The notes beneath the pieces were generated by a model that saw only the letters and a list, made by a program, of their open reading frames with translations, ran no database searches and was not told the DNA's origin. Of a stretch of 32,000 nucleotides of DNA, positions 4,539 to 27,000 are shown in pieces. A program made the position numbers and the translations under genes. Positions within the stretch are counted from its first letter, which is position 1. Each line of letters opens with the position of its first letter. The stretch comes from Vibrio alginolyticus NBRC 15630 = ATCC 17749 (GTDB taxonomy: Bacteria; Pseudomonadota; Gammaproteobacteria; Enterobacterales; Vibrionaceae): the NCBI RefSeq assembly GCF_000354175.2, contig NC_022349.1, forward strand, positions 900,001-932,000, written 5' to 3'.

Positions 4539-5135
4539 TTGCTTAAGAACAAACACTACTTCATAGCAATGCCTACGGACCAAGCATTTGCAGCTTCTTA
4601 CCCACACCCTATTCCGCCATCTGGAATTATTTTAATTACACAACGTGGGTACTCAATGTTGGTAAAAGCATTTACCGATGATTTTTCATGGCAAGTCCAA
4701 GAACAATTGGCAGATGCATATTTCGAAGCACAGAGAGTACTATCATCGGCGGAGCAACTATTAAACCAAGCTAATTTGCTAGTTCAACATGACCAACGAA
4801 TTAACAACTTAGAAAAGGCTCAGTTAAATACACAAGCTCACATTTCTAGAACAAATGCCGAAGTTACAAAAGCCAATCAAAAAGCCGACGATGCATTTAA
4901 AGCGGCAAATGCTGCATTAGAGCATAAATTTGGAGATAAGGATTATTACACAGTTATCGCTTATTGTAACTCTAAAAATATCCCAATCATTCTGACCTTA
5001 GCAAAAGCTAAAGGTTTGGAAGCTAGAGCTTACACCCAAAAAATTGGAGGTAAGATCAATAAAGTTCCTGATGAACGTTGGGGACAAGTAAATGCGTATC
5101 ATATTGCAGTTTTAGACCACGTTTTTAAACAGTGA
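4539..5135 (+). CDS. Phage antirepressor-like protein (tail of a Bro-N-type domain plus ORF6C-type C-terminal domain), possibly 5'-truncated. It is the only cassette ORF on the + strand.
   Basis: 198 aa with a TTG start (first ATG at 4569). ILITQRGYSMLVKAF..W resembles the end of Bro-N/ORF6N domains. A central coiled-coil segment is followed by YYTVIAYCN..GL.ARAYTQKIGGKINKVPDERWGQVNAYHIAVLDHVF, which matches the ORF6C pattern (Y.TI..YA...lG..as..c...g.....v.D.R.G.VN.Y...vL...F). Confidence 0.5.
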   Translation: MLKNKHYFIAMPTDQAFAASYPHPIPPSGIILITQRGYSMLVKAFTDDFSWQVQEQLADAYFEAQRVLSSAEQLLNQANLLVQHDQRINNLEKAQLNTQAHISRTNAEVTKANQKADDAFKAANAALEHKFGDKDYYTVIAYCNSKNIPIILTLAKAKGLEARAYTQKIGGKINKVPDERWGQVNAYHIAVLDHVFKQ

Positions 5136-5305: not shown

Positions 5306-5335
5306 GTGCGTACTTACGTTATGCACCAAACTGTT

Positions 5336-5717
5336 TTATACGCTTAGCGCCAATAAAAACTGATACTTACTTTGTTGAAGTAAGTCTAAATGGCGCTCAA
5401 ACATGGGTACGCCATTGGATAAAGAAAGGGGGTAGACGAGTCCATTACCGACATACACCCCAACGTGTGCTCCGTATGAGTCAGTAGAGTCGTTGTACAT
5501 CATGATATCTAGCGGCTTAAACTCAGTGACCACCTCACTCATCCCACCATTCACTAGAACGGTAGTTAGGTGGATTTAAACCGAAGTCTCTGAGCAGGTT
5601 ATAAGCAAAGACCTGACAGTTAGCTCCAAGCGTTAAGTCTGAATCATCTTTGCAACCCGGAATGCGGGATGAAGCGTATCTTACATTTTTGAATCTGTCG
5701 GGAATATCCATTTCCAT
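5336..5717 (-). pseudogene. NlpC/P60-like (C40 papain-fold) hydrolase cassette gene split by a frameshift
   Basis: Track ORFs 5535-5780 and 5336-5554 overlap in different frames. Together they read MEMDIPDRF..GANCQVFAYNLLRDFG (catalytic Cys context), then ..FKPLDIMMYN..YGAHVGVYVG (His context). The likely true start is ATG 5717, with GGAGA upstream. The track start at 5780 lies inside the attC. Confidence 0.55.
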
Positions 5718-5732
5718 TTTCTCCCAAAGCAC

Positions 5733-5856: not shown

Positions 5857-6200
5857 GAGCGCCTTTCAGTTTTCGCCGATTTTTCAGCCACTTTCGCCAA
5901 AGCTCGTTTTGCTAATTAATGATTAGCAAAGCTAACTCAAATATGTGTTTAACAAAAAAATTACCGTTGATCTTTAGTTTGAAATGCGTCTCACAACACC
6001 ATACTTCGGCGATGTAAGTGCGCCGAACTAATCGCGAACGCCTTATATTATTAGAAGGCTTTATGCCGCCTTTCACATCAGTAAGCTTAAGTACCAAACT
6101 GAAATTAGTCGCATTACCTCAGCTAAGGAAACCGACCGAACACGCTAAACCTCCGAACCTAGAAACCGTATCAATGTGCTTTCGTATTTTCTGTGCCAGT

Positions 6201-6325
6201 TAACGCCGCATTAAGGTGTGAGCAACGCTACCACAAAACTAAACCATACCACCGTAAACACAAAACCCAACGATGGAATGAAAAATTTCATGCGTTGGGA
6301 ATCACTCTTAAATGCTTTGTTATAC
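6201..6325 (-). repeat. attC (VCR-like), conserved copy 3 (most diverged of the five)
   Basis: taacgccgcattaaggtgtgagcaacgctaccac...catgcgttgggaatcactcttaaatgctttgttatac. Confidence 0.85.
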
Positions 6326-6348
6326 AACAGATTTTGTTAGTCCAGATT

Positions 6349-7461
6349 TTATTTTTTTAGTTTGGTTGCACTCACCTTTAGGATTCGTTTTCTTTGAGCC
6401 GACCAAAGGTTATTCTTCAGAATCTTACCTGACATATATAAATCATTTTTACTAACAATCAAAACTGCGCTTTCCAAAGATTTCTCCGAGGATAAAAGTT
6501 CAATTACCGTATCAGTGTATATATCCCAACCAATTGGTCTAAACAGTAGATGACCGCCATCATGATTGTTTCTGTATTTTTCTATGTCTTGACCCTCCTT
6601 ATAGTCGGATAAACTTTTAACATTAGAAAAAGTAATTTCATAAAATGATTTAATAAATTCGAACAATTCATTCTCTTGTTCGTCTGTGATTTTTACTTTT
6701 TCAATCTCACTAATCTTACAGTCTAATTTGAAGGATAAGAGCTTTTGTACACAATCAAAAATATTACCTAACGATGTTACATTAGTTTTATCTCTTAATG
6801 GTCCAACACTAAACGCCACATTGTTTTCATTTAGGCATTTACTTTCTTCTACTATTCGTCGAGTGATGCAAGCCGCTATATCATCCTCATCCAATGCTAT
6901 GATTGCATCTTTTTTAACCAGCTTGGCCTTTTTACTTAGGGTTGTGAATAATCTACGAGACTTCTTAATACCTGACTTCGTATTTCTATGTGTAACAATA
7001 ATGACACTGAGCTGCTCAAAGCCAATATCTTCGTTGTTCTCTACAGCTTTTTTTATGCCTGACAAACGGTGTTGACCGTCTAGTGCAAACATTTTTTCTT
7101 CTTTGGTCAATGAAAGAAAACCAAGGCATTCGCGAGCATAGTCTGGCATTTCCAATAACTCAGCTTCTTTGCTATTTGGCTCAATTCGTGTGAAGTCATG
7201 CCATTGAGGATCACCATCATATATTGCGACAACGAGAGAATTAAAAAAGTGGTCTGGATTGCTTATTAAATAATCTCCAATTTCGACTGCTCGCTCATCT
7301 TCGAGGTTCCTTTGAATCATCTCAGATAACTTTTCACTTGTGTGCAAATCTGTTGCAAAGTTTATTAGCTCACTAATGTCTTTTAGCTGCATTAGACAAG
7401 TGTAAGTGTCCCAAGTACCCATTTTTCCCCTACGACAAGGGATTACTAACTTCTTACTCAT
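6349..7461 (-). CDS. DGQHR domain protein (DndB/DpdB-like, ParB/sulfiredoxin-fold)
   Basis: 370 aa. It carries the literal signature FALDGQHRLSGI, preceded by QRNLEDERAVEIGDYL (the QRxLxxxRxxxIxxYL motif of DndB-type proteins). Its ATG overlaps the upstream stop as ATGA (7458-7461). Confidence 0.8.
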   Translation of the reverse strand: MSKKLVIPCRRGKMGTWDTYTCLMQLKDISELINFATDLHTSEKLSEMIQRNLEDERAVEIGDYLISNPDHFFNSLVVAIYDGDPQWHDFTRIEPNSKEAELLEMPDYARECLGFLSLTKEEKMFALDGQHRLSGIKKAVENNEDIGFEQLSVIIVTHRNTKSGIKKSRRLFTTLSKKAKLVKKDAIIALDEDDIAACITRRIVEESKCLNENNVAFSVGPLRDKTNVTSLGNIFDCVQKLLSFKLDCKISEIEKVKITDEQENELFEFIKSFYEITFSNVKSLSDYKEGQDIEKYRNNHDGGHLLFRPIGWDIYTDTVIELLSSEKSLESAVLIVSKNDLYMSGKILKNNLWSAQRKRILKVSATKLKK

Positions 7462-7994
7462 AGGATGCTTGCTCCTTTTAACAAGTCTCTTACTTCTACC
7501 AAAAAATCATTCGTGTTATATGGTGGTATGAAAATTGTAGTCAACTGTTCTTCAATGTCACCCGTAGATACACCATTTGGTACCTCAGCATAGTGGTATG
7601 TCAAATGTCCAGCCCAAAGATTTAACATTCTATGAATTTTAGGTCTAGATTGAACTCTCGCTTCTCTAATATAATCTCTATAGCGCTTTTTAATTGTATT
7701 ATTGCTTGTTGTATCTCCCGCTTTACCAACGTAAAGAATATAAGAATTACTCGGTAAACTTCCATGTTCAACGTTAATCGAGAATGCATAGACACCCTGA
7801 TGATCTGGTAGATTAGGGGACGGCTCATTAAACTTGATTGTATTCCACACTAAGTCCGGCAATTCGTCTTTTTTACGAATAAAGCTAGGGCAAAGAACAA
7901 ATTCCCTTCTATATTTCGATATATACGCTAGGCGTTTGTCATCCTGGGATTGCTCTTCAATATCTTGATCAAGAACATCATAAAATTCACTCAT
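7458..7994 (-). CDS. GIY-YIG superfamily nuclease-domain protein
   Basis: 178 aa. Ordered motifs are GVYAF (GIY), 14 aa, ILYVGKA (YIG), KKRYRDY (conserved Arg), and IEEQLTTIFIPPYN (E....P.YN as in UvrC/Slx1-type domains). It is the first gene of a 2-gene cassette. Confidence 0.75.
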   Translation of the reverse strand: MSEFYDVLDQDIEEQSQDDKRLAYISKYRREFVLCPSFIRKKDELPDLVWNTIKFNEPSPNLPDHQGVYAFSINVEHGSLPSNSYILYVGKAGDTTSNNTIKKRYRDYIREARVQSRPKIHRMLNLWAGHLTYHYAEVPNGVSTGDIEEQLTTIFIPPYNTNDFLVEVRDLLKGASIL

Positions 7995-8018
7995 TTACTA
8001 CAATATATCCTCATGTTG

Positions 8019-8142
8019 TATAACGCCCTGTTAAGGGGTGAGCAACGCAATACCGAAGTCACCGCACACCACCTTAATCACTTAACCCATGCATAGTAAA
8101 AATGCCACGCGTTGCGAATCACTCTTAAACAGTTTGTTATAC
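8019..8142 (-). repeat. attC (VCR-like), conserved copy 4
   Basis: tataacgccctgttaaggggtgagcaacgcaataccgaag...ccacgcgttgcgaatcactcttaaacagtttgttatac. Confidence 0.9.
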
Positions 8143-8145
8143 AAA

Positions 8146-8745
8146 TTAACTACCCAAAATTTGGTAATTTAAAAATGCTTTTAAGTTTCTATAAAGCTGT
8201 GTTGTTCGCACATAAGGCCAACGTCCTAATACATTGGAGCCAACGACTAAGCCCGTCCTTTGCAGTCTAGAAATAAGTGTGAATGCATAGTCCTCAGATA
8301 TAGAATACTTTTCACTTAGGAGTTTTACTGCGTCCTCATTCTTCTGACCTACATCAGAGTTTTCACCATCAACTTTGGTGAACGGTAATATATCTCCAAC
8401 GAGGAACAAAACTTCGATTTCACGGAAGGACATGTCAGAAAATATTGTTACTATTTCACTGTAGAGATCCGGTTTATCAATAATCAAGCCATCTTTTACA
8501 CCCTGTACAAACAAATTAGTTAAAAACTCTACTTTCTCGTTTACTGACGCCTTTTCGATTGCTTCATTCGTCTTCAGAAAACAGCCAATGAAAGAGTCAT
8601 CACTCAATACATGATCAGTAAGCTTAATGTCGCCATTTTCCAGACCGGATATTAGTTTATTAAAACGACGCTCTCGAAAGCGGCTAACTACATTTCCCAA
8701 AGTTGCACTTAAAGCCAACTTGCCACTGCTTGCTACGATGTCCAT
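8146..8745 (-). CDS. Hypothetical cassette protein, soluble, with no domain I can name with confidence
   Basis: A 199-aa ORF fills a whole cassette between two conserved attCs. There is no TM segment. The C-terminus YAFTLISRLQRTGLVV looks like a winged-helix recognition segment. The middle (KVEFLTNLFVQGV...YSEIVTIFSDMSFREIEVLFLV) faintly recalls the DUF4393/Abi-alpha pattern. Confidence 0.6.
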   Translation of the reverse strand: MDIVASSGKLALSATLGNVVSRFRERRFNKLISGLENGDIKLTDHVLSDDSFIGCFLKTNEAIEKASVNEKVEFLTNLFVQGVKDGLIIDKPDLYSEIVTIFSDMSFREIEVLFLVGDILPFTKVDGENSDVGQKNEDAVKLLSEKYSISEDYAFTLISRLQRTGLVVGSNVLGRWPYVRTTQLYRNLKAFLNYQILGS

Positions 8746-10081: not shown

Positions 10082-10620
10082 ATGGAACATCAGAGCCTAT
10101 TTACGTACCAGCGCATTCAGCGCTTTCTCGTCCGGTTTGGATCGTATTGTTTGGTACCCTATTCTCACGCATTAGCTTGTTTCTGGCCTGGCCGTTTCTG
10201 ATTGTCTTCCTCTATCAAGATTACGCTGCCAGCGAGATCGCCATCGGCACCATGTTGGCGCTTTCGGCGCTGGTAGGCAGCACCTCTGGGATCTATGTCG
10301 GCTACCTATCAAATAAATTTGGCCGCAAAGTGATGATGCTCGGCGGTAATGTGATCGCTGCGCTGGCGTATACTGGCATTGGGCTGGCTGATCAAATCTG
10401 GCACTTCTTTGCCTTGCTGCTGATCACTGGCTTGATGCGTCCGACCATTGAGGCACCCTCCAAGGCAGTGATTAGCGACTCTCTGCCCGACAAAAAAGAC
10501 CGCGAACTGGCGCTGAATATGCGCTATTTTCTGATCAATCTCGGTGGATCTATCGAGCCCTTGGTGGGCATCACTCTAGCGCTGGCGCACCCACAAAAGC
10601 TCTTCTATGTCTGTGTGTGT
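10082..10620 (+). pseudogene. MFS transporter gene fragment (N-terminal ~170 aa), frameshifted and 3'-truncated
   Basis: ATG at 10082 gives MEHQSLFTYQRIQRFL, then the frame is lost near 10124-10131. The next frame continues SRPVWIVLFGTLFSRISLFLAWPFL... with MFS helices and a GRK loop. Homology ends near ..AHPQKLF, before a (TG)n-G9 tract. The segment is visibly GC-richer than its flanks. Confidence 0.65.
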
Positions 10621-10937
10621 GGGGGGGGGACGCTGATACACATGTGAACATGATCTTTCATCAAGTGCCCTTCCTCAATAGTCACGCCTTTCCGTTTCGC
10701 TAACTCATGAAACGTTGAACCTAGATGTTTTCGCAGTGCACCATATATCAATCTTTGTCTCTTTTTCGGTATAAAAACCACATGGTATTTACAATCCCAA
10801 CGGGTATGAGACAGACTCTTATAGCCTCGCATAGGTTGTTTCCTCTTTACTTTTGGTCGAGAAAAGAAGTTACACCGTTGTCATGGTCAAACCTATGCGA
10901 GTCACCCCAGCTTAGCTGGGGATTTACCAGTATTTAA
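10605..10937 (-). mobile_element. tnpA: IS200/IS605-family element remnant (left end plus the first ~70 codons of Y1 transposase tnpA)
   Basis: MRGYKSLSHTRWDCKYHVVFIPKKRQ..DHVHMCISVPP matches IS200 TnpA (SLAHTRWNCKYHIVFAPKYR..DHIHMLLEIPPK), then breaks off in the G9 run (10621-10629). Upstream is a perfect hairpin, ccccagc-tta-gctgggg (10905-10921), typical of IS200 left ends. Confidence 0.75.
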
Positions 10938-24015: not shown

Positions 24016-27000
24016 TTACTTCAAACTTGGGAGTCCACTAAGCAACGTATTTAGCTGCTCCCCAACATCACCAACGTTTTCAGGCGCGATAATATCTTCG
24101 TGCGAACACTCAAAATAATGCTTGTGCAAGCTGGTAATAAATGGCTTCCAATGCGCATCAATGTCATACCCCTCCGGTAAGGTACGTTCAGCCACAAACA
24201 AATTCACCTCACCATCATAAAGTGATGATTTTGCACTAGATAATAGCCGAACAGCATCTTCATAGTTCGATGTAATATCTTTAAACATCGCCATACGTTG
24301 CTTGTCCAATTCATCATCTGTAATGTCATTTGCTGCTAAGAACAAATCCTTTTCTCTTTCGATCTCGTCTTGCGCCTCTTCATTCATTGGCCCTTCCCAA
24401 TCTTGGCCTTCAGGTGGGTAGGTATCTAGCAAGCCTAAGAATGCAACTTCTTCACCTTGACGTCGCAGTTTAGATGCCAATGCTTGAGCTACTGTTCCAC
24501 CAAAGGAATAGCCTAGTAAATGGTATGGCCCTTCAGGCTGTAATTGCTTCAATGCTTTCATATGAATATCACAAGCATCTTCCATGTCTCGCCCCGCAGA
24601 GATGGCACCATTTGGACGTGGTGATTGCAGACCAAACACTGGATAGTGACCATCCAGATATTTAGGTAAACCTGTATATTGCCACGCGAAGCCAGAGGCG
24701 GAATTGATGCAGAAGAGCGCAGGACCAGATCCCGCTCTTATTGGCAGGACTTCACCAAAGCCAGCAAGAGTTGGATCGTTTAGCGCTTCATCGTCTAATA
24801 ATAATGCCGTCAGTTTCTCTGGTGTTGGATTCACCATGATTTGACCAATGGTCACAGGAACATTAAGAATTCGACGAATATCTGCTGCCAGCTTCATTGC
24901 CATTAATGAGTGACCACCTAAGGCAAAGAAATCATCTTCTGCAGACAGAGTATCCAGCCCTAACACGTCAGCAAATATGCTCACAAGTTGAGTTTCCATC
25001 CCTGGTCGTGCCGTTCGCCCAGAACCAGTAACAACGTCACTCGGGAGAGGCAACGCTTTGCGATCAAGTTTGCCGTTGGCACTTAATGGGTATTCTTCCA
25101 TCAAGATAATGGCAACAGGAACCATGTGAGCTGGCAAATGCTCTGCCAGTTTGCTGCGCAGAGTTTCGCTCTCCGTTTCGACACCATCATTGAGGATCGC
25201 ATAACCCACAAGCTGGCGATCATCCGCACCCGCCATGGCCTTTTCATTACTCAAGGATTTTGCACAGACAAGGGCCTGCTTAACACCTGCAAGCGATTGA
25301 AGCGCCGTTTCGATTTCTCCCAGTTCAATCCGTTGACCACGAATTTTTAATTGATCATCACTTCGACCAAGGTATTCGATTTTTCCAGAGGGTAGCCAAC
25401 GAACAACATCTCCTGTACGGTACATACGCTCCCCACTCGAGAACGGATTCGCAATAAACCTGTCTGCCGTTAATCCACTGCGGTTCAAATAGCCGATAGC
25501 CAATTGATCACCAGCTAGATACAACTCACCGGGGACACCCACTGGCGTTTCTCTCAGGAAGCTATCTAGCACATACACCTGCGTATTCCATACGGGTAGA
25601 CCGATCGGCACACTCGTCCCTAAGCTTTCAGCTAAAATAGAACCAAAAGCCGGACAATACGTCACATCAACCGCCGCCTCAGTTGGACCATATAAGTTGT
25701 GTAATGGCGCCTCTATCCAGCGTGCATATTGATTAGACAGTTCTTTCGATAATGCCTCACCAGAACAGAAAACACGCTGTAAGCTTCGAGCGACACGCTC
25801 ACCTTGTTCATGACTGTTTTCTATCGATGCCATAAACGCAGCAAGCATAGACGGTACAAAGTGCATGGTTGTCACTTTGTAGTCATTGATGATCTGCATT
25901 AACCACTCCGGATCTTTATGCGATTCCGGTGGTGCCATGACCAAGCTCGCACCTTCAATCAGCGGCCAGAAGAACTCCCAGACGGAAACATCAAAACTGC
26001 ATGGCGTTTTTTGCAAGACCACATCTTGCGCATTGAGTGTATATTCATGCTGCATCCATTTCAGGCGGTTTACGATAGCCTGATGCGAAACTAACACGCC
26101 TTTCGGATTCCCTGTCGAGCCAGATGTATAGATAATGTAGGCCCCATGATAAGGCGTAAGTCCATCCTTCTCTTCCGTCAGCGTGGAAGCCACTGGTTTA
26201 GGAAGTTCATCCAAAATCAGCAACTCTCCGAATGCAGAAAAGCGCGCTCGGTGCTCAGATGTCGTGATGATCAGCTTAGGCTTCGCATCATTGACCATGT
26301 ACGCCAACCTTTCGTCTGGATAACCCACGTCAAGCGGTAAGTAAGCGGCCCCACATTCAATAATACTATTGAACGCAAGACTTAACTTCGTACTTCGTGA
26401 CAACGCAACGGCAACAATATCGCCAACACTCACTTTGTGCTGCCAAAGTAACTCTGCTATCGCTTTCACCTGCCCTCTCATTTCGCGATAAGTGAAACTT
26501 CGGTCTTCATCAATCAAAGCAAGCTTCTCGGGCGTTTTCTCAGCTTGTTGCGCCATCAACGAACGCAAGGTTTGCTCTGGTAACGCAACTTTGGTCTGGT
26601 TAATACGTTGCTGTAACTCAATTTCATCAGCAAGACGTAAATCTAACTGGGTCAAACTTGCCTCTGGTGACGCGATAATCGCATCTAACACTTGTTCAAA
26701 GCGCTGCATTACTTGCTCAGCGACACCCGCTGTATCGCGGTATTCAAACAGAATATGGATCTGCTCACCCGGTAACACTAAGAGCGTTAATGGGTAATGA
26801 GTGTAGCCACGGTTATGAATATCGCACAGCTGCGCCCCTGCATAGTCTTTGTTAAACCAATCAGAATGGTCTGGATAGTTCTCAACCACCAGCAGCGTAT
26901 CAAATAGCGTTTCGCCGCCAGCCAATTGCTGAATTTCACCCAAACCAAGTTCATCATGCTCTAGTAATTGAATCTGAATTTCTTGATGCGCTATTAGCTG

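Follow-up and report, generated by a model that had tools for sequence, protein, structure and literature searches.

The subject of this analysis is a pair of adjoining genes in a 32,000-nucleotide (nt) window of Vibrio alginolyticus, the window being the whole stretch of DNA that was examined. All coordinates refer to it unless another locus is named. Both genes lie on the minus strand within one integron gene cassette, and together they are referred to as the window pair. The first open reading frame (ORF1, 7458..7994) encodes a protein of 178 amino acids (aa), with a helical N-terminal region (about residues 1-60), a divergent GIY-YIG (URI) domain (about 60-161) and a conserved C-terminal helix. 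The second (ORF2, 6349..7461) encodes a protein of 370 aa, made up of a DGQHR/ParB-fold domain (about 1-230, with DGQHR at 128-132) and, after it, a helical C-terminal domain. The stop codon of ORF1 and the start codon of ORF2 overlap as ATGA (7458..7461, minus strand), which is read directly from the sequence, as the first-pass annotation of this DNA had done, and suggests translational coupling. We suggest that the pair is probably an undescribed restriction partner of the DNA phosphorothioation (PT) mark, and not a stand-alone system.

The cassette is 1,820 bp long and runs from 8023 to 6204 on the minus strand. These limits come from alignment with a 96%-identical copy in V. cholerae. The identity begins at the GTTATAC core of the upstream attC and ends at the GTT of the downstream one, and beyond these points the two sequences diverge. 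The attC site at the 5' end (8016..8144, minus strand) is part of the preceding cassette; it is a member of repeat families D2-D4 and has its R' core, GTTATAC, at 8024-8018, so that the cassette starts at 8023. The attC site at the 3' end (6196..6327, minus strand) is a member of repeat families D2 and D4, with the R'' core TATAAC at 6324-6319 and the R' core GTTAAC at 6204-6199, and G6204 is the last base of the cassette. Both belong to a family of attC-type repeats with 5-6 recognizable copies in the left 10 kb of the window. In minimum-free-energy folds, the copy at 8014-8147 forms the expected R''/R'-L''/L' imperfect hairpin with both ends paired, and the copy at 6196-6330 has unpaired ends and does not form it. 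With attC sites on both sides, identical boundaries in V. cholerae and a different array position in other V. alginolyticus strains, the unit is an integron gene cassette. Thus, the earlier description of a two-ORF cassette bounded by two attC sites is borne out, with its size now set by the V. cholerae alignment. There is no intI in the 32-kb window, and promoter-like sites within the cassette are not in excess of the number expected by chance.

Judged by its sequence, ORF1 is a divergent GIY-YIG nuclease, as had been proposed from its ordered motifs. These are G67-V68-Y69, Y88-x-G90 (in YVGKAGD), R104, Y108, E148 and P157-P158-Y-N160. The GIY-YIG catalytic set among them (Y69, Y88, G90, R104, Y108 and E148) is invariant in 93 relatives that are 24-51% identical and were taken from the profile search described below. 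When these relatives were compared with Pfam, 11 of the 93 matched GIY-YIG PF01541 (best 9.8e-7) and 7 matched GIY_YIG_2, and no competing family recurred. Alignment of the ORF1 family profile with UvrC N-terminal domains by hhalign gave a probability of 98% over ORF1 residues 60-161, with an E-value of 2.3e-13 that is inflated because the UvrC sequences had been retrieved via the shared motif. The AlphaFold2 (AF2) model of ORF1 has a predicted local distance difference test (pLDDT) score of 93 and has its elements in a beta-beta-alpha-alpha-beta-alpha order, as would fit a GIY-YIG core, preceded by three helices. In a Foldseek search of predicted viral structures (BFVD), phage GIY-YIG proteins rank first. 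The same model gave nothing significant, only noise, against the PDB. ORF1 alone has no match in Pfam, PADLOC or PHROGs, and the NCBIfam search gave nothing useful, with UvrC appearing only at an E-value of 0.1. A set of 36 close homologues gave a single weak GIY_YIG_2 match in Pfam, and sequence searches of the PDB with ORF1, ORF2 and their profiles found no relative. The family is nevertheless sizeable, since its profile retrieves 381 clusters (50% identity level) at E<=1e-10 from 1.84 billion representative proteins; among the matches listed, all are stand-alone proteins of about 160-185 aa.

ORF2 is more readily placed. It matches Pfam DndB PF14072 at 3.6e-29 (102.3 bits, cutoff 29.1) and TIGR03187 DGQHR with 105.8 bits (cutoff 58.85), and Q50-R51 and D128-R132 are invariant in 40 homologues. 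This agrees with the earlier assignment to the DGQHR/DndB family on its QR and DGQHR motifs. ORF2 fails the DndB equivalog model TIGR03233, with 73.8 bits against a cutoff of 328. Because of this shortfall, and because the clusters that hold the pair have a canonical DndB of their own at the head of dndBCDE, ORF2 is best described as a DGQHR/ParB-fold paralogue of DndB, and not DndB itself. Its AF2 model has a pLDDT of 85.8, and the best Foldseek match in the PDB is the N-domain of the pNOB8 ParB, followed by sulfiredoxin, both of them weak. A scan of viral contigs with ORF2 found nothing. A HEPN motif in its C-terminal domain was considered and dropped, as R297 is invariant and the partner His is variable.

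Comparison of homologous sequences shows that the two genes are inherited and translated as a unit. Of 43 homologous loci, 38 retain the 4-nt overlap of the ATGA type, and they include loci of only about 40% identity. Across the same loci, which are not independent, the identities of ORF1 and ORF2 to the window pair correlate with r=0.95. Wherever the downstream sequence is long enough, a clear ORF1 homologue is always followed directly by an ORF2 homologue, and the adjacency holds across phyla. The translational coupling that the first-pass annotation had suggested, and the cross-genome adjacency that it had put forward for checking, are therefore both supported.

The surroundings of the homologues were sampled, not censused, by a pattern-based retrieval that yielded about 25 distinct contexts. 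In the commonest layout, dndF-G-H is followed in some cases by one or more other nucleases, then by ORF1-ORF2, and then by a convergent dndE-D-C-B. This layout is found in Vibrio sp. ED004, V. cholerae, Shewanella, a metagenome-assembled genome (MAG) of Aeromonadaceae, two relatives of Endozoicomonas and several metagenome contigs. The pair of Vibrio sp. ED004 is 86% and 80% identical to the window ORF1 and ORF2. A Pseudomonadales MAG contig shows only dndH and ORF1 before the contig ends. Other arrangements also place the pair by dnd genes. For example, P. viridiflava has two copies adjoining dndBCDE, a conjugative element of Salmonella Infantis has the pair next to dndBCDE, and a Rhizobium plasmid has the order pair, methyltransferase, dndBCD. 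In Geobacter the order is a DndD-like gene, dnd_assoc_4, the pair, an Mrr-type nuclease and dndBCD. A Colwellia-type contig carries dndB-C-D-E-ORF1-ORF2 as a single co-directional operon, with a gap of 15 nt between dndE and ORF1, and in E. coli islands a distance of 9 kb separates the pair from dndE and a DndI-like gene. None of the loci examined showed a link to dpd (7-deazaguanine) genes. The DpdB half of the earlier label "DndB/DpdB-like" for ORF2 is thus left without a dpd-type neighbor in the contexts sampled, and no match to a DpdB model was reported.

The slot of the pair between dndFGH and dndBCDE is the slot of DndI in Salmonella. In other islands, AIPR, HARE-HTH-Mrr, sulfur-binding domain (SBD)-HNH or DndI-like genes lie between dndH and the pair. 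This part of the islands is an accretion zone, in which DndI and the pair do not strictly replace one another. Two gene sets from this part of dnd islands deserve separate mention. In V. cholerae and Endozoicomonas islands, an SBD-HNH "phosphorothioated DNA-binding restriction endonuclease" directly adjoins the pair. At two loci (locus L017, 5061-5927; locus L007, 5085-5963) the gene for such an enzyme (NF045808, 373 bits) is the one that separates dndH from the pair, so that a PT-binding nuclease adjoins the genes that write PT. In the B7A-type dnd island of E. coli JNEC-KY180, a 401-aa DUF262 protein and a 536-aa ATP-dependent nuclease (ABC/AAA-like) lie between dptH and dndE (locus L047, 18044-20850), which makes another split ParB-plus-nuclease pair in the DndI slot.

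Homologues of the pair are also found after ssp genes. The plasmid pROLI83 of Roseobacter litoralis (NZ_CP143425.1) carries, in order, SspA, SspB, SspC, SspD, an ORF1-like gene and a DGQHR gene (locus L060, 2629-10727). The Ssp proteins were confirmed with PADLOC at E values of 1e-97 to 0, and the last two genes overlap by 4 nt. In an Actinomycetota MAG, SspC and an SspD-like 3'-phosphoadenosine 5'-phosphosulfate (PAPS) reductase precede the pair (locus L037, 4826-11702), and on a metagenome contig one gene of unassigned family and then an SspD-like PAPS reductase do so (locus L042, 20-4270). The slot after sspABCD in Ssp systems is normally that of SspE. The pROLI83 type of locus, sspABCD with the pair in place of sspE, looks like an undescribed Ssp subtype.

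Some copies are carried on mobile elements. In E. coli the pair occupies the old/tin hotspot of a P2-like prophage, between portal and gpA. In A. dhakensis it lies in a Mu-like prophage between endolysin and Mor, in Enterobacter in a prophage between endolysin and terminase, and one V. alginolyticus copy adjoins a prophage integrase. The cassette copy in V. cholerae, which has both attC sites, is immediately preceded by filamentous-prophage genes (Rep_trans, Zot) and a HEPN_RiboL-PSP gene on its upstream side (locus L029, 1-6400; locus L030, 1-11685). This copy adjoins core chromosomal genes, and no long cassette array is obvious around it. The Enterobacter prophage, too, has a HEPN_RiboL-PSP gene, 7 kb from the pair (locus L057, 2857-3843). 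The P2-like prophage of E. coli encodes, beside gpA, a 335-aa protein of the PAPS-reductase family that is 27% identical to DndC over 212 aa (locus L001, 11745-12752).

The E. coli copies allow linkage in trans to be assessed. dndC is present in 207 of 5,426 complete E. coli genomes (3.8%), and both of the complete genomes that have the P2-borne pair (2/2) carry dndC elsewhere, in one of them in a dnd island 2.6 Mb from the pair. In this test a chimeric query, made of the pair and dndC, matched two places in each genome, and the total of matching records stayed at 207. Such a co-occurrence would arise by chance with a probability of about 0.0015 for independent genomes and of about 0.04 for clonal ones. 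A second variant of the E. coli pair (P0105 type) is absent from complete E. coli genomes. The first-pass annotation had regarded the pair as an orphan, self-contained module without a modification partner. Since the family sits in dnd clusters, within a dndBCDE operon, in the slot after sspABCD and with dnd in trans in E. coli, this interpretation is not supported; outside the window the family lies overwhelmingly within dnd or ssp phosphorothioation clusters.

On balance, we favor the view that the pair acts as a restriction effector of PT systems, a putative split and nuclease-swapped analogue of DndI and SspE that has here been detached as a cassette. This is because its usual home is in dnd and ssp clusters, at the positions of DndI and SspE. 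DndI, in which a DUF262 (DGQQR) ATPase is joined to an HNH nickase, is encoded beside dndBCDE and transcribed together with dndFGH (PMC11662687). PT-DNA stimulates its ATPase, which leads to release from self DNA, and the enzyme is toxic without PT (PMC11662687). SspE is similar to DndI but inactive without PT (PMC11662687). By analogy with these two enzymes, ORF2 would bind DNA and hydrolyze nucleoside triphosphate (NTP) in a PT-responsive manner. It would thereby hold the ORF1 nickase off PT-marked host DNA, or license it only in PT-marked cells. Unmarked phage or plasmid DNA would then be nicked and its replication blocked. We infer PT sensing, NTPase activity, nicking and complex formation of the pair from this comparison.

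The comparison with known systems shows both what is shared and what is not. Like DndI of the IscS-DndBCDE-DndI system of Salmonella enterica Cerro 87, which combines a ParB-superfamily NTPase with a DGQxR motif and a nicking nuclease, the pair is predicted to have the counterpart activities. It also lies in the same slot between dndFGH and dndBCDE, which is true of the family and not of the window copy. However, DndI is one polypeptide of 656 aa with DUF262 and DUF1524 (HNH), whereas the pair consists of two proteins with the GIY-YIG nuclease first, and the ParB module of the pair is of the DndB type (PF14072) and not GmrSD_N. Neither GmrSD_N (DUF262) nor GmrSD_C (DUF1524) is detected in ORF1 or ORF2, and both match the true DndI-like neighbors. 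SspE shares with the pair the position, which is directly after sspABCD in Roseobacter and after SspC and an SspD-like gene in the Actinomycetota MAG, and the logic of a ParB-type NTPase with a nuclease. It differs in being a fused DUF262-DUF1524 nickase switched on by a PT-stimulated GTPase, while the pair is without either Pfam domain. DndB, the regulator of dndCDE, belongs to the same PF14072/TIGR03187 family as ORF2 and is about 24-30% identical to it over the N-terminal domain. Canonical DndB is also present in the same clusters, though, and ORF2 is always coupled to an upstream GIY-YIG gene, whereas DndB is not. The type IV enzymes GmrSD and BrxU also join a ParB-fold NTPase to a nuclease and exist in split (GmrS and GmrD) and fused forms (PMC4619093). 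They carry DUF262 and DUF1524 domains, target modified phage DNA and have no linkage to PT clusters like that of the pair. The GmrSD-like logic that the first-pass annotation had pointed to is the best available lead to a mechanism.

Several points weigh against the pair as a PT effector. There is no dnd or ssp gene in the 32-kb window, and the prophage and integron cassette copies have no PT genes within 10 kb, which suggests that the pair is tolerated, and perhaps useful, without linked PT genes. The co-occurrence in E. coli rests on two genomes that are possibly related. Several homopolymer frameshift alleles of the cassette exist in V. alginolyticus. In some islands the pair is accompanied by a DndI-like GmrSD protein, so that neither is a simple substitute for the other, and ORF2 is nearer to DndB, a regulator, than to the DUF262 domain of DndI or SspE. 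Finally, dnd islands accumulate many unrelated nucleases (PMC10853773), so that adjacency could reflect the clustering of defense genes in islands.

For the window copy itself, which has been captured as a promoterless integron cassette without modification genes, the PT-effector view has a specific consequence. The pair would be functional only if the genome had dnd or ssp genes at another place, and would otherwise be silent or decaying cargo in a cassette bank. dnd is present in some V. alginolyticus strains. The window ORF2 carries a small lesion. An A7 homopolymer (6352..6358, minus strand) is one A short of the A8 of its relatives, and the frameshift leads to a premature stop at 6349-6351, while the ancestral TAA lies at 6320-6322 in the attC core. 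The deletion was established by protein comparison with a relative (P0048) and by DNA alignment with the V. cholerae cassette (column 1846). As a result, ORF2 has 370 aa compared with 380 aa in relatives, having lost a poorly conserved tail of 10 aa. ORF1 is intact. Between the window and the V. cholerae cassette, the ratio of nonsynonymous to synonymous substitution rates (dN/dS) is 0.15 for ORF1 and 0.10 for ORF2, and the cassette genes have therefore been under purifying selection in the past. The exact ORF1 protein occurs on 39 V. alginolyticus contigs, and intact alleles of 178 and 380 aa are present in the species.

Damaged alleles are present too. One is a 558-aa GIY-YIG-DGQHR fusion (P0171), which arises from the insertion of one T into a T-run that precedes the ORF1 stop by 16 codons, and in which the conserved C-terminal helix of ORF1 is destroyed. 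It is found on 21 contigs, including a complete chromosome, and at loci L049-L051 (3001-4677), which include CP082317.1. A further V. alginolyticus allele has ORF2 split in two (P0174/P0175). Homopolymer frameshifts thus seem frequent in the pair cassette. The fusion was considered as Rosetta-stone evidence of an interaction between the two proteins and was set aside, as a homopolymer insertion that replaces a conserved helix is more likely to mark a damaged allele. These data bear on a question that is separate from the function of the family, namely whether the window cassette is inert stored cargo in this V. alginolyticus genome, promoterless, decaying and far from any integron promoter. 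The window is without an integrase and without a Pc promoter, promoter-like sites are not in excess in the cassette, and the loss from ORF2, together with the fusion and split alleles of other strains, would fit such a fate. On the other side are the intact ORF1, the poor conservation of the lost tail, the dN/dS values of about 0.1-0.15 that indicate past purifying selection, and the intact alleles in the species. We consider it rather unlikely that the cassette is inert.

With regard to the family, the strongest competitor to the PT-effector view is an autonomous module that is independent of PT. Here the DGQHR protein would sense some property of the DNA of an invader, for example a base modification made by a phage, and activate the GIY-YIG nuclease. 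Such a module would resemble a split GmrSD/BrxU type IV enzyme or an abortive-infection pair, and the presence of dnd and ssp genes nearby would be ordinary island clustering. This would account for copies carried as cargo at classic defense or moron positions (P2 old/tin, the Mu-like and Enterobacter prophages, the prophage integrase and the cassettes) with no PT genes within 10 kb. It would also be in line with the spread of the exact ORF1 protein over V. alginolyticus contigs and with purifying selection on the cassette copies. However, compared with island clustering the linkage is much closer and more specific, with the same slot by dndE in many genera, an operonic arrangement with dndBCDE, and the SspE slot after sspABCD in unrelated phyla. 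In addition, both complete E. coli genomes with a P2-borne copy have dnd in trans, against the low base rate in the species. An autonomous module is thus unlikely, both in its function and in its explanation of the dnd and ssp neighborhood.

A less probable alternative keeps the pair within PT systems but gives it another role. ORF2, as a DndB-like, DNA-binding and ATP-modulated regulator or a nucleotide-depleting ParB enzyme, would restrain ORF1; once a phage has put the main PT system out of action, the freed nuclease would kill the cell. Such a back-up role has been proposed by the Aravind group for URI nucleases that border Dnd loci. The closest characterized relative of ORF2 is indeed DndB, the same authors regard the stand-alone URI nucleases of Dnd neighborhoods as suicide back-ups and suggest that nucleotides may be degraded by ParB proteins (PMC10853773), and the tight translational coupling resembles the control of stoichiometry in toxin-antitoxin systems. 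Yet canonical DndB is already present in the same clusters, and the pair positionally replaces SspE, which is a direct restriction effector. We therefore give suicide by regulator release a low probability, and regard the corresponding place of the pair as a back-up to the main system as improbable to the same degree. Least probable is a PT-dependent type IV restriction in which the pair cuts foreign DNA with phosphorothioates in a non-host sequence context: SBD-HNH enzymes directly beside the pair in V. cholerae and Endozoicomonas islands do show that PT-binding nucleases coexist with dnd, but no sulfur-binding domain is detected in ORF1 or ORF2, and the operonic link to dndBCDE or sspABCD better fits a partner of the host's own mark than its enemy.

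As far as named systems are concerned, the first-pass annotation recognized none for the pair, and the databases and literature searched agree. PADLOC-DB v2 has no hit for ORF1 and only the generic DndB model for ORF2. PADLOC v2, NCBIfam, Pfam and PHROGs hold no model of ORF1 and no model specific to the ORF2 clade. Full-text literature searches found no paper that describes the pair, and the main texts of the Rousset 2022 paper on P2 hotspots and of the preprint on the integron "biobank" mention neither DndB nor GIY-YIG. The closest published statement is a general remark that Dnd loci have URI nucleases at their boundaries, which may be suicide back-ups (PMC10853773). The stand-alone URI/GIY-YIG nucleases of that study probably include the ORF1 family. 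They are treated there as solitary effectors, and the obligate coupling to a DndB paralogue, the linkage to Ssp and the mobile copies are not described.

If the pair is a PT effector, a wider role can be considered. The pair may be a portable reader-effector half of PT immunity, a restriction-only module which mobile elements (integron cassettes and P2-like, Mu-like and other prophages) carry without modification genes and which free-rides on the dnd or ssp marks of the host to exclude competing phages and plasmids. It would then be one of the missing restriction partners for dnd and ssp loci, of which the large majority are without DndFGH, SspE or SspFGH. We offer this extension as a tentative possibility, less probable than the effector role itself. 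About 84% of sspBCD loci are without a known restriction partner (PMC8092258), and DndFGH is found in only 806 of 3,416 nuclease-bearing Dnd taxa (PMC10853773). In loci without a known restriction partner, the family of the pair is a candidate reader of the PT mark; it is sizeable and is linked to both Dnd and Ssp across Proteobacteria, Geobacter and Actinomycetota. If the pair is a PT-sensing restriction module, it would represent a third effector architecture, GIY-YIG with a DndB-like protein, beside DndI/SspE and DndFGH/SspFGH. Moreover, DndB-type proteins could then serve as sensors for effectors and not only as regulators, and prophages and integron cassettes would trade the effector half apart from the modification half.

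Some further features of the cassette and its surroundings remain to be described. Upstream of ORF1, a 7-codon ORF, MRIYCSK* (7991..8014, minus strand), starts just past the attC core, and its TGA overlaps the ATG of ORF1, so that this junction, too, reads ATGA. The V. cholerae cassette has the short ORF in identical form. As a feature of the family it was dropped, because it is not conserved in the homologues outside cassettes. The earlier statement that every other intact cassette in the window holds one ORF is roughly right, but it does not hold for the cassette at about 5309-5729, which has two overlapping small ORFs of 72 and 81 aa on the minus strand and may be a frameshifted gene or a small two-gene unit. 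Next to it, the unit at 4539-5135 has a sole long ORF (198 aa) that is opposite in strand to all other cassettes.

The end of the array abuts genes for a phosphopantetheinyl transferase (PPTase) and a catechol siderophore, and a truncated major facilitator superfamily (MFS) fragment (10147-10647) lies between the array and the siderophore locus. This locus, to the right of the array (10942-31971), encodes the PPTase, a 3-deoxy-D-arabino-heptulosonate 7-phosphate (DAHP) synthase, a short-chain dehydrogenase/reductase (SDR) like 2,3-dihydroxybenzoate (2,3-DHB) dehydrogenase, an isochorismate synthase and an AMP-binding (adenylating) enzyme. It also encodes an isochorismatase-aryl carrier protein (ArCP), a binding protein, an MFS transporter, two FecCD permeases and an ORF of 2,651 aa. 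Within this last ORF there is a pair of 63-nt repeats, at 25308 and 29838, that are 78% identical.

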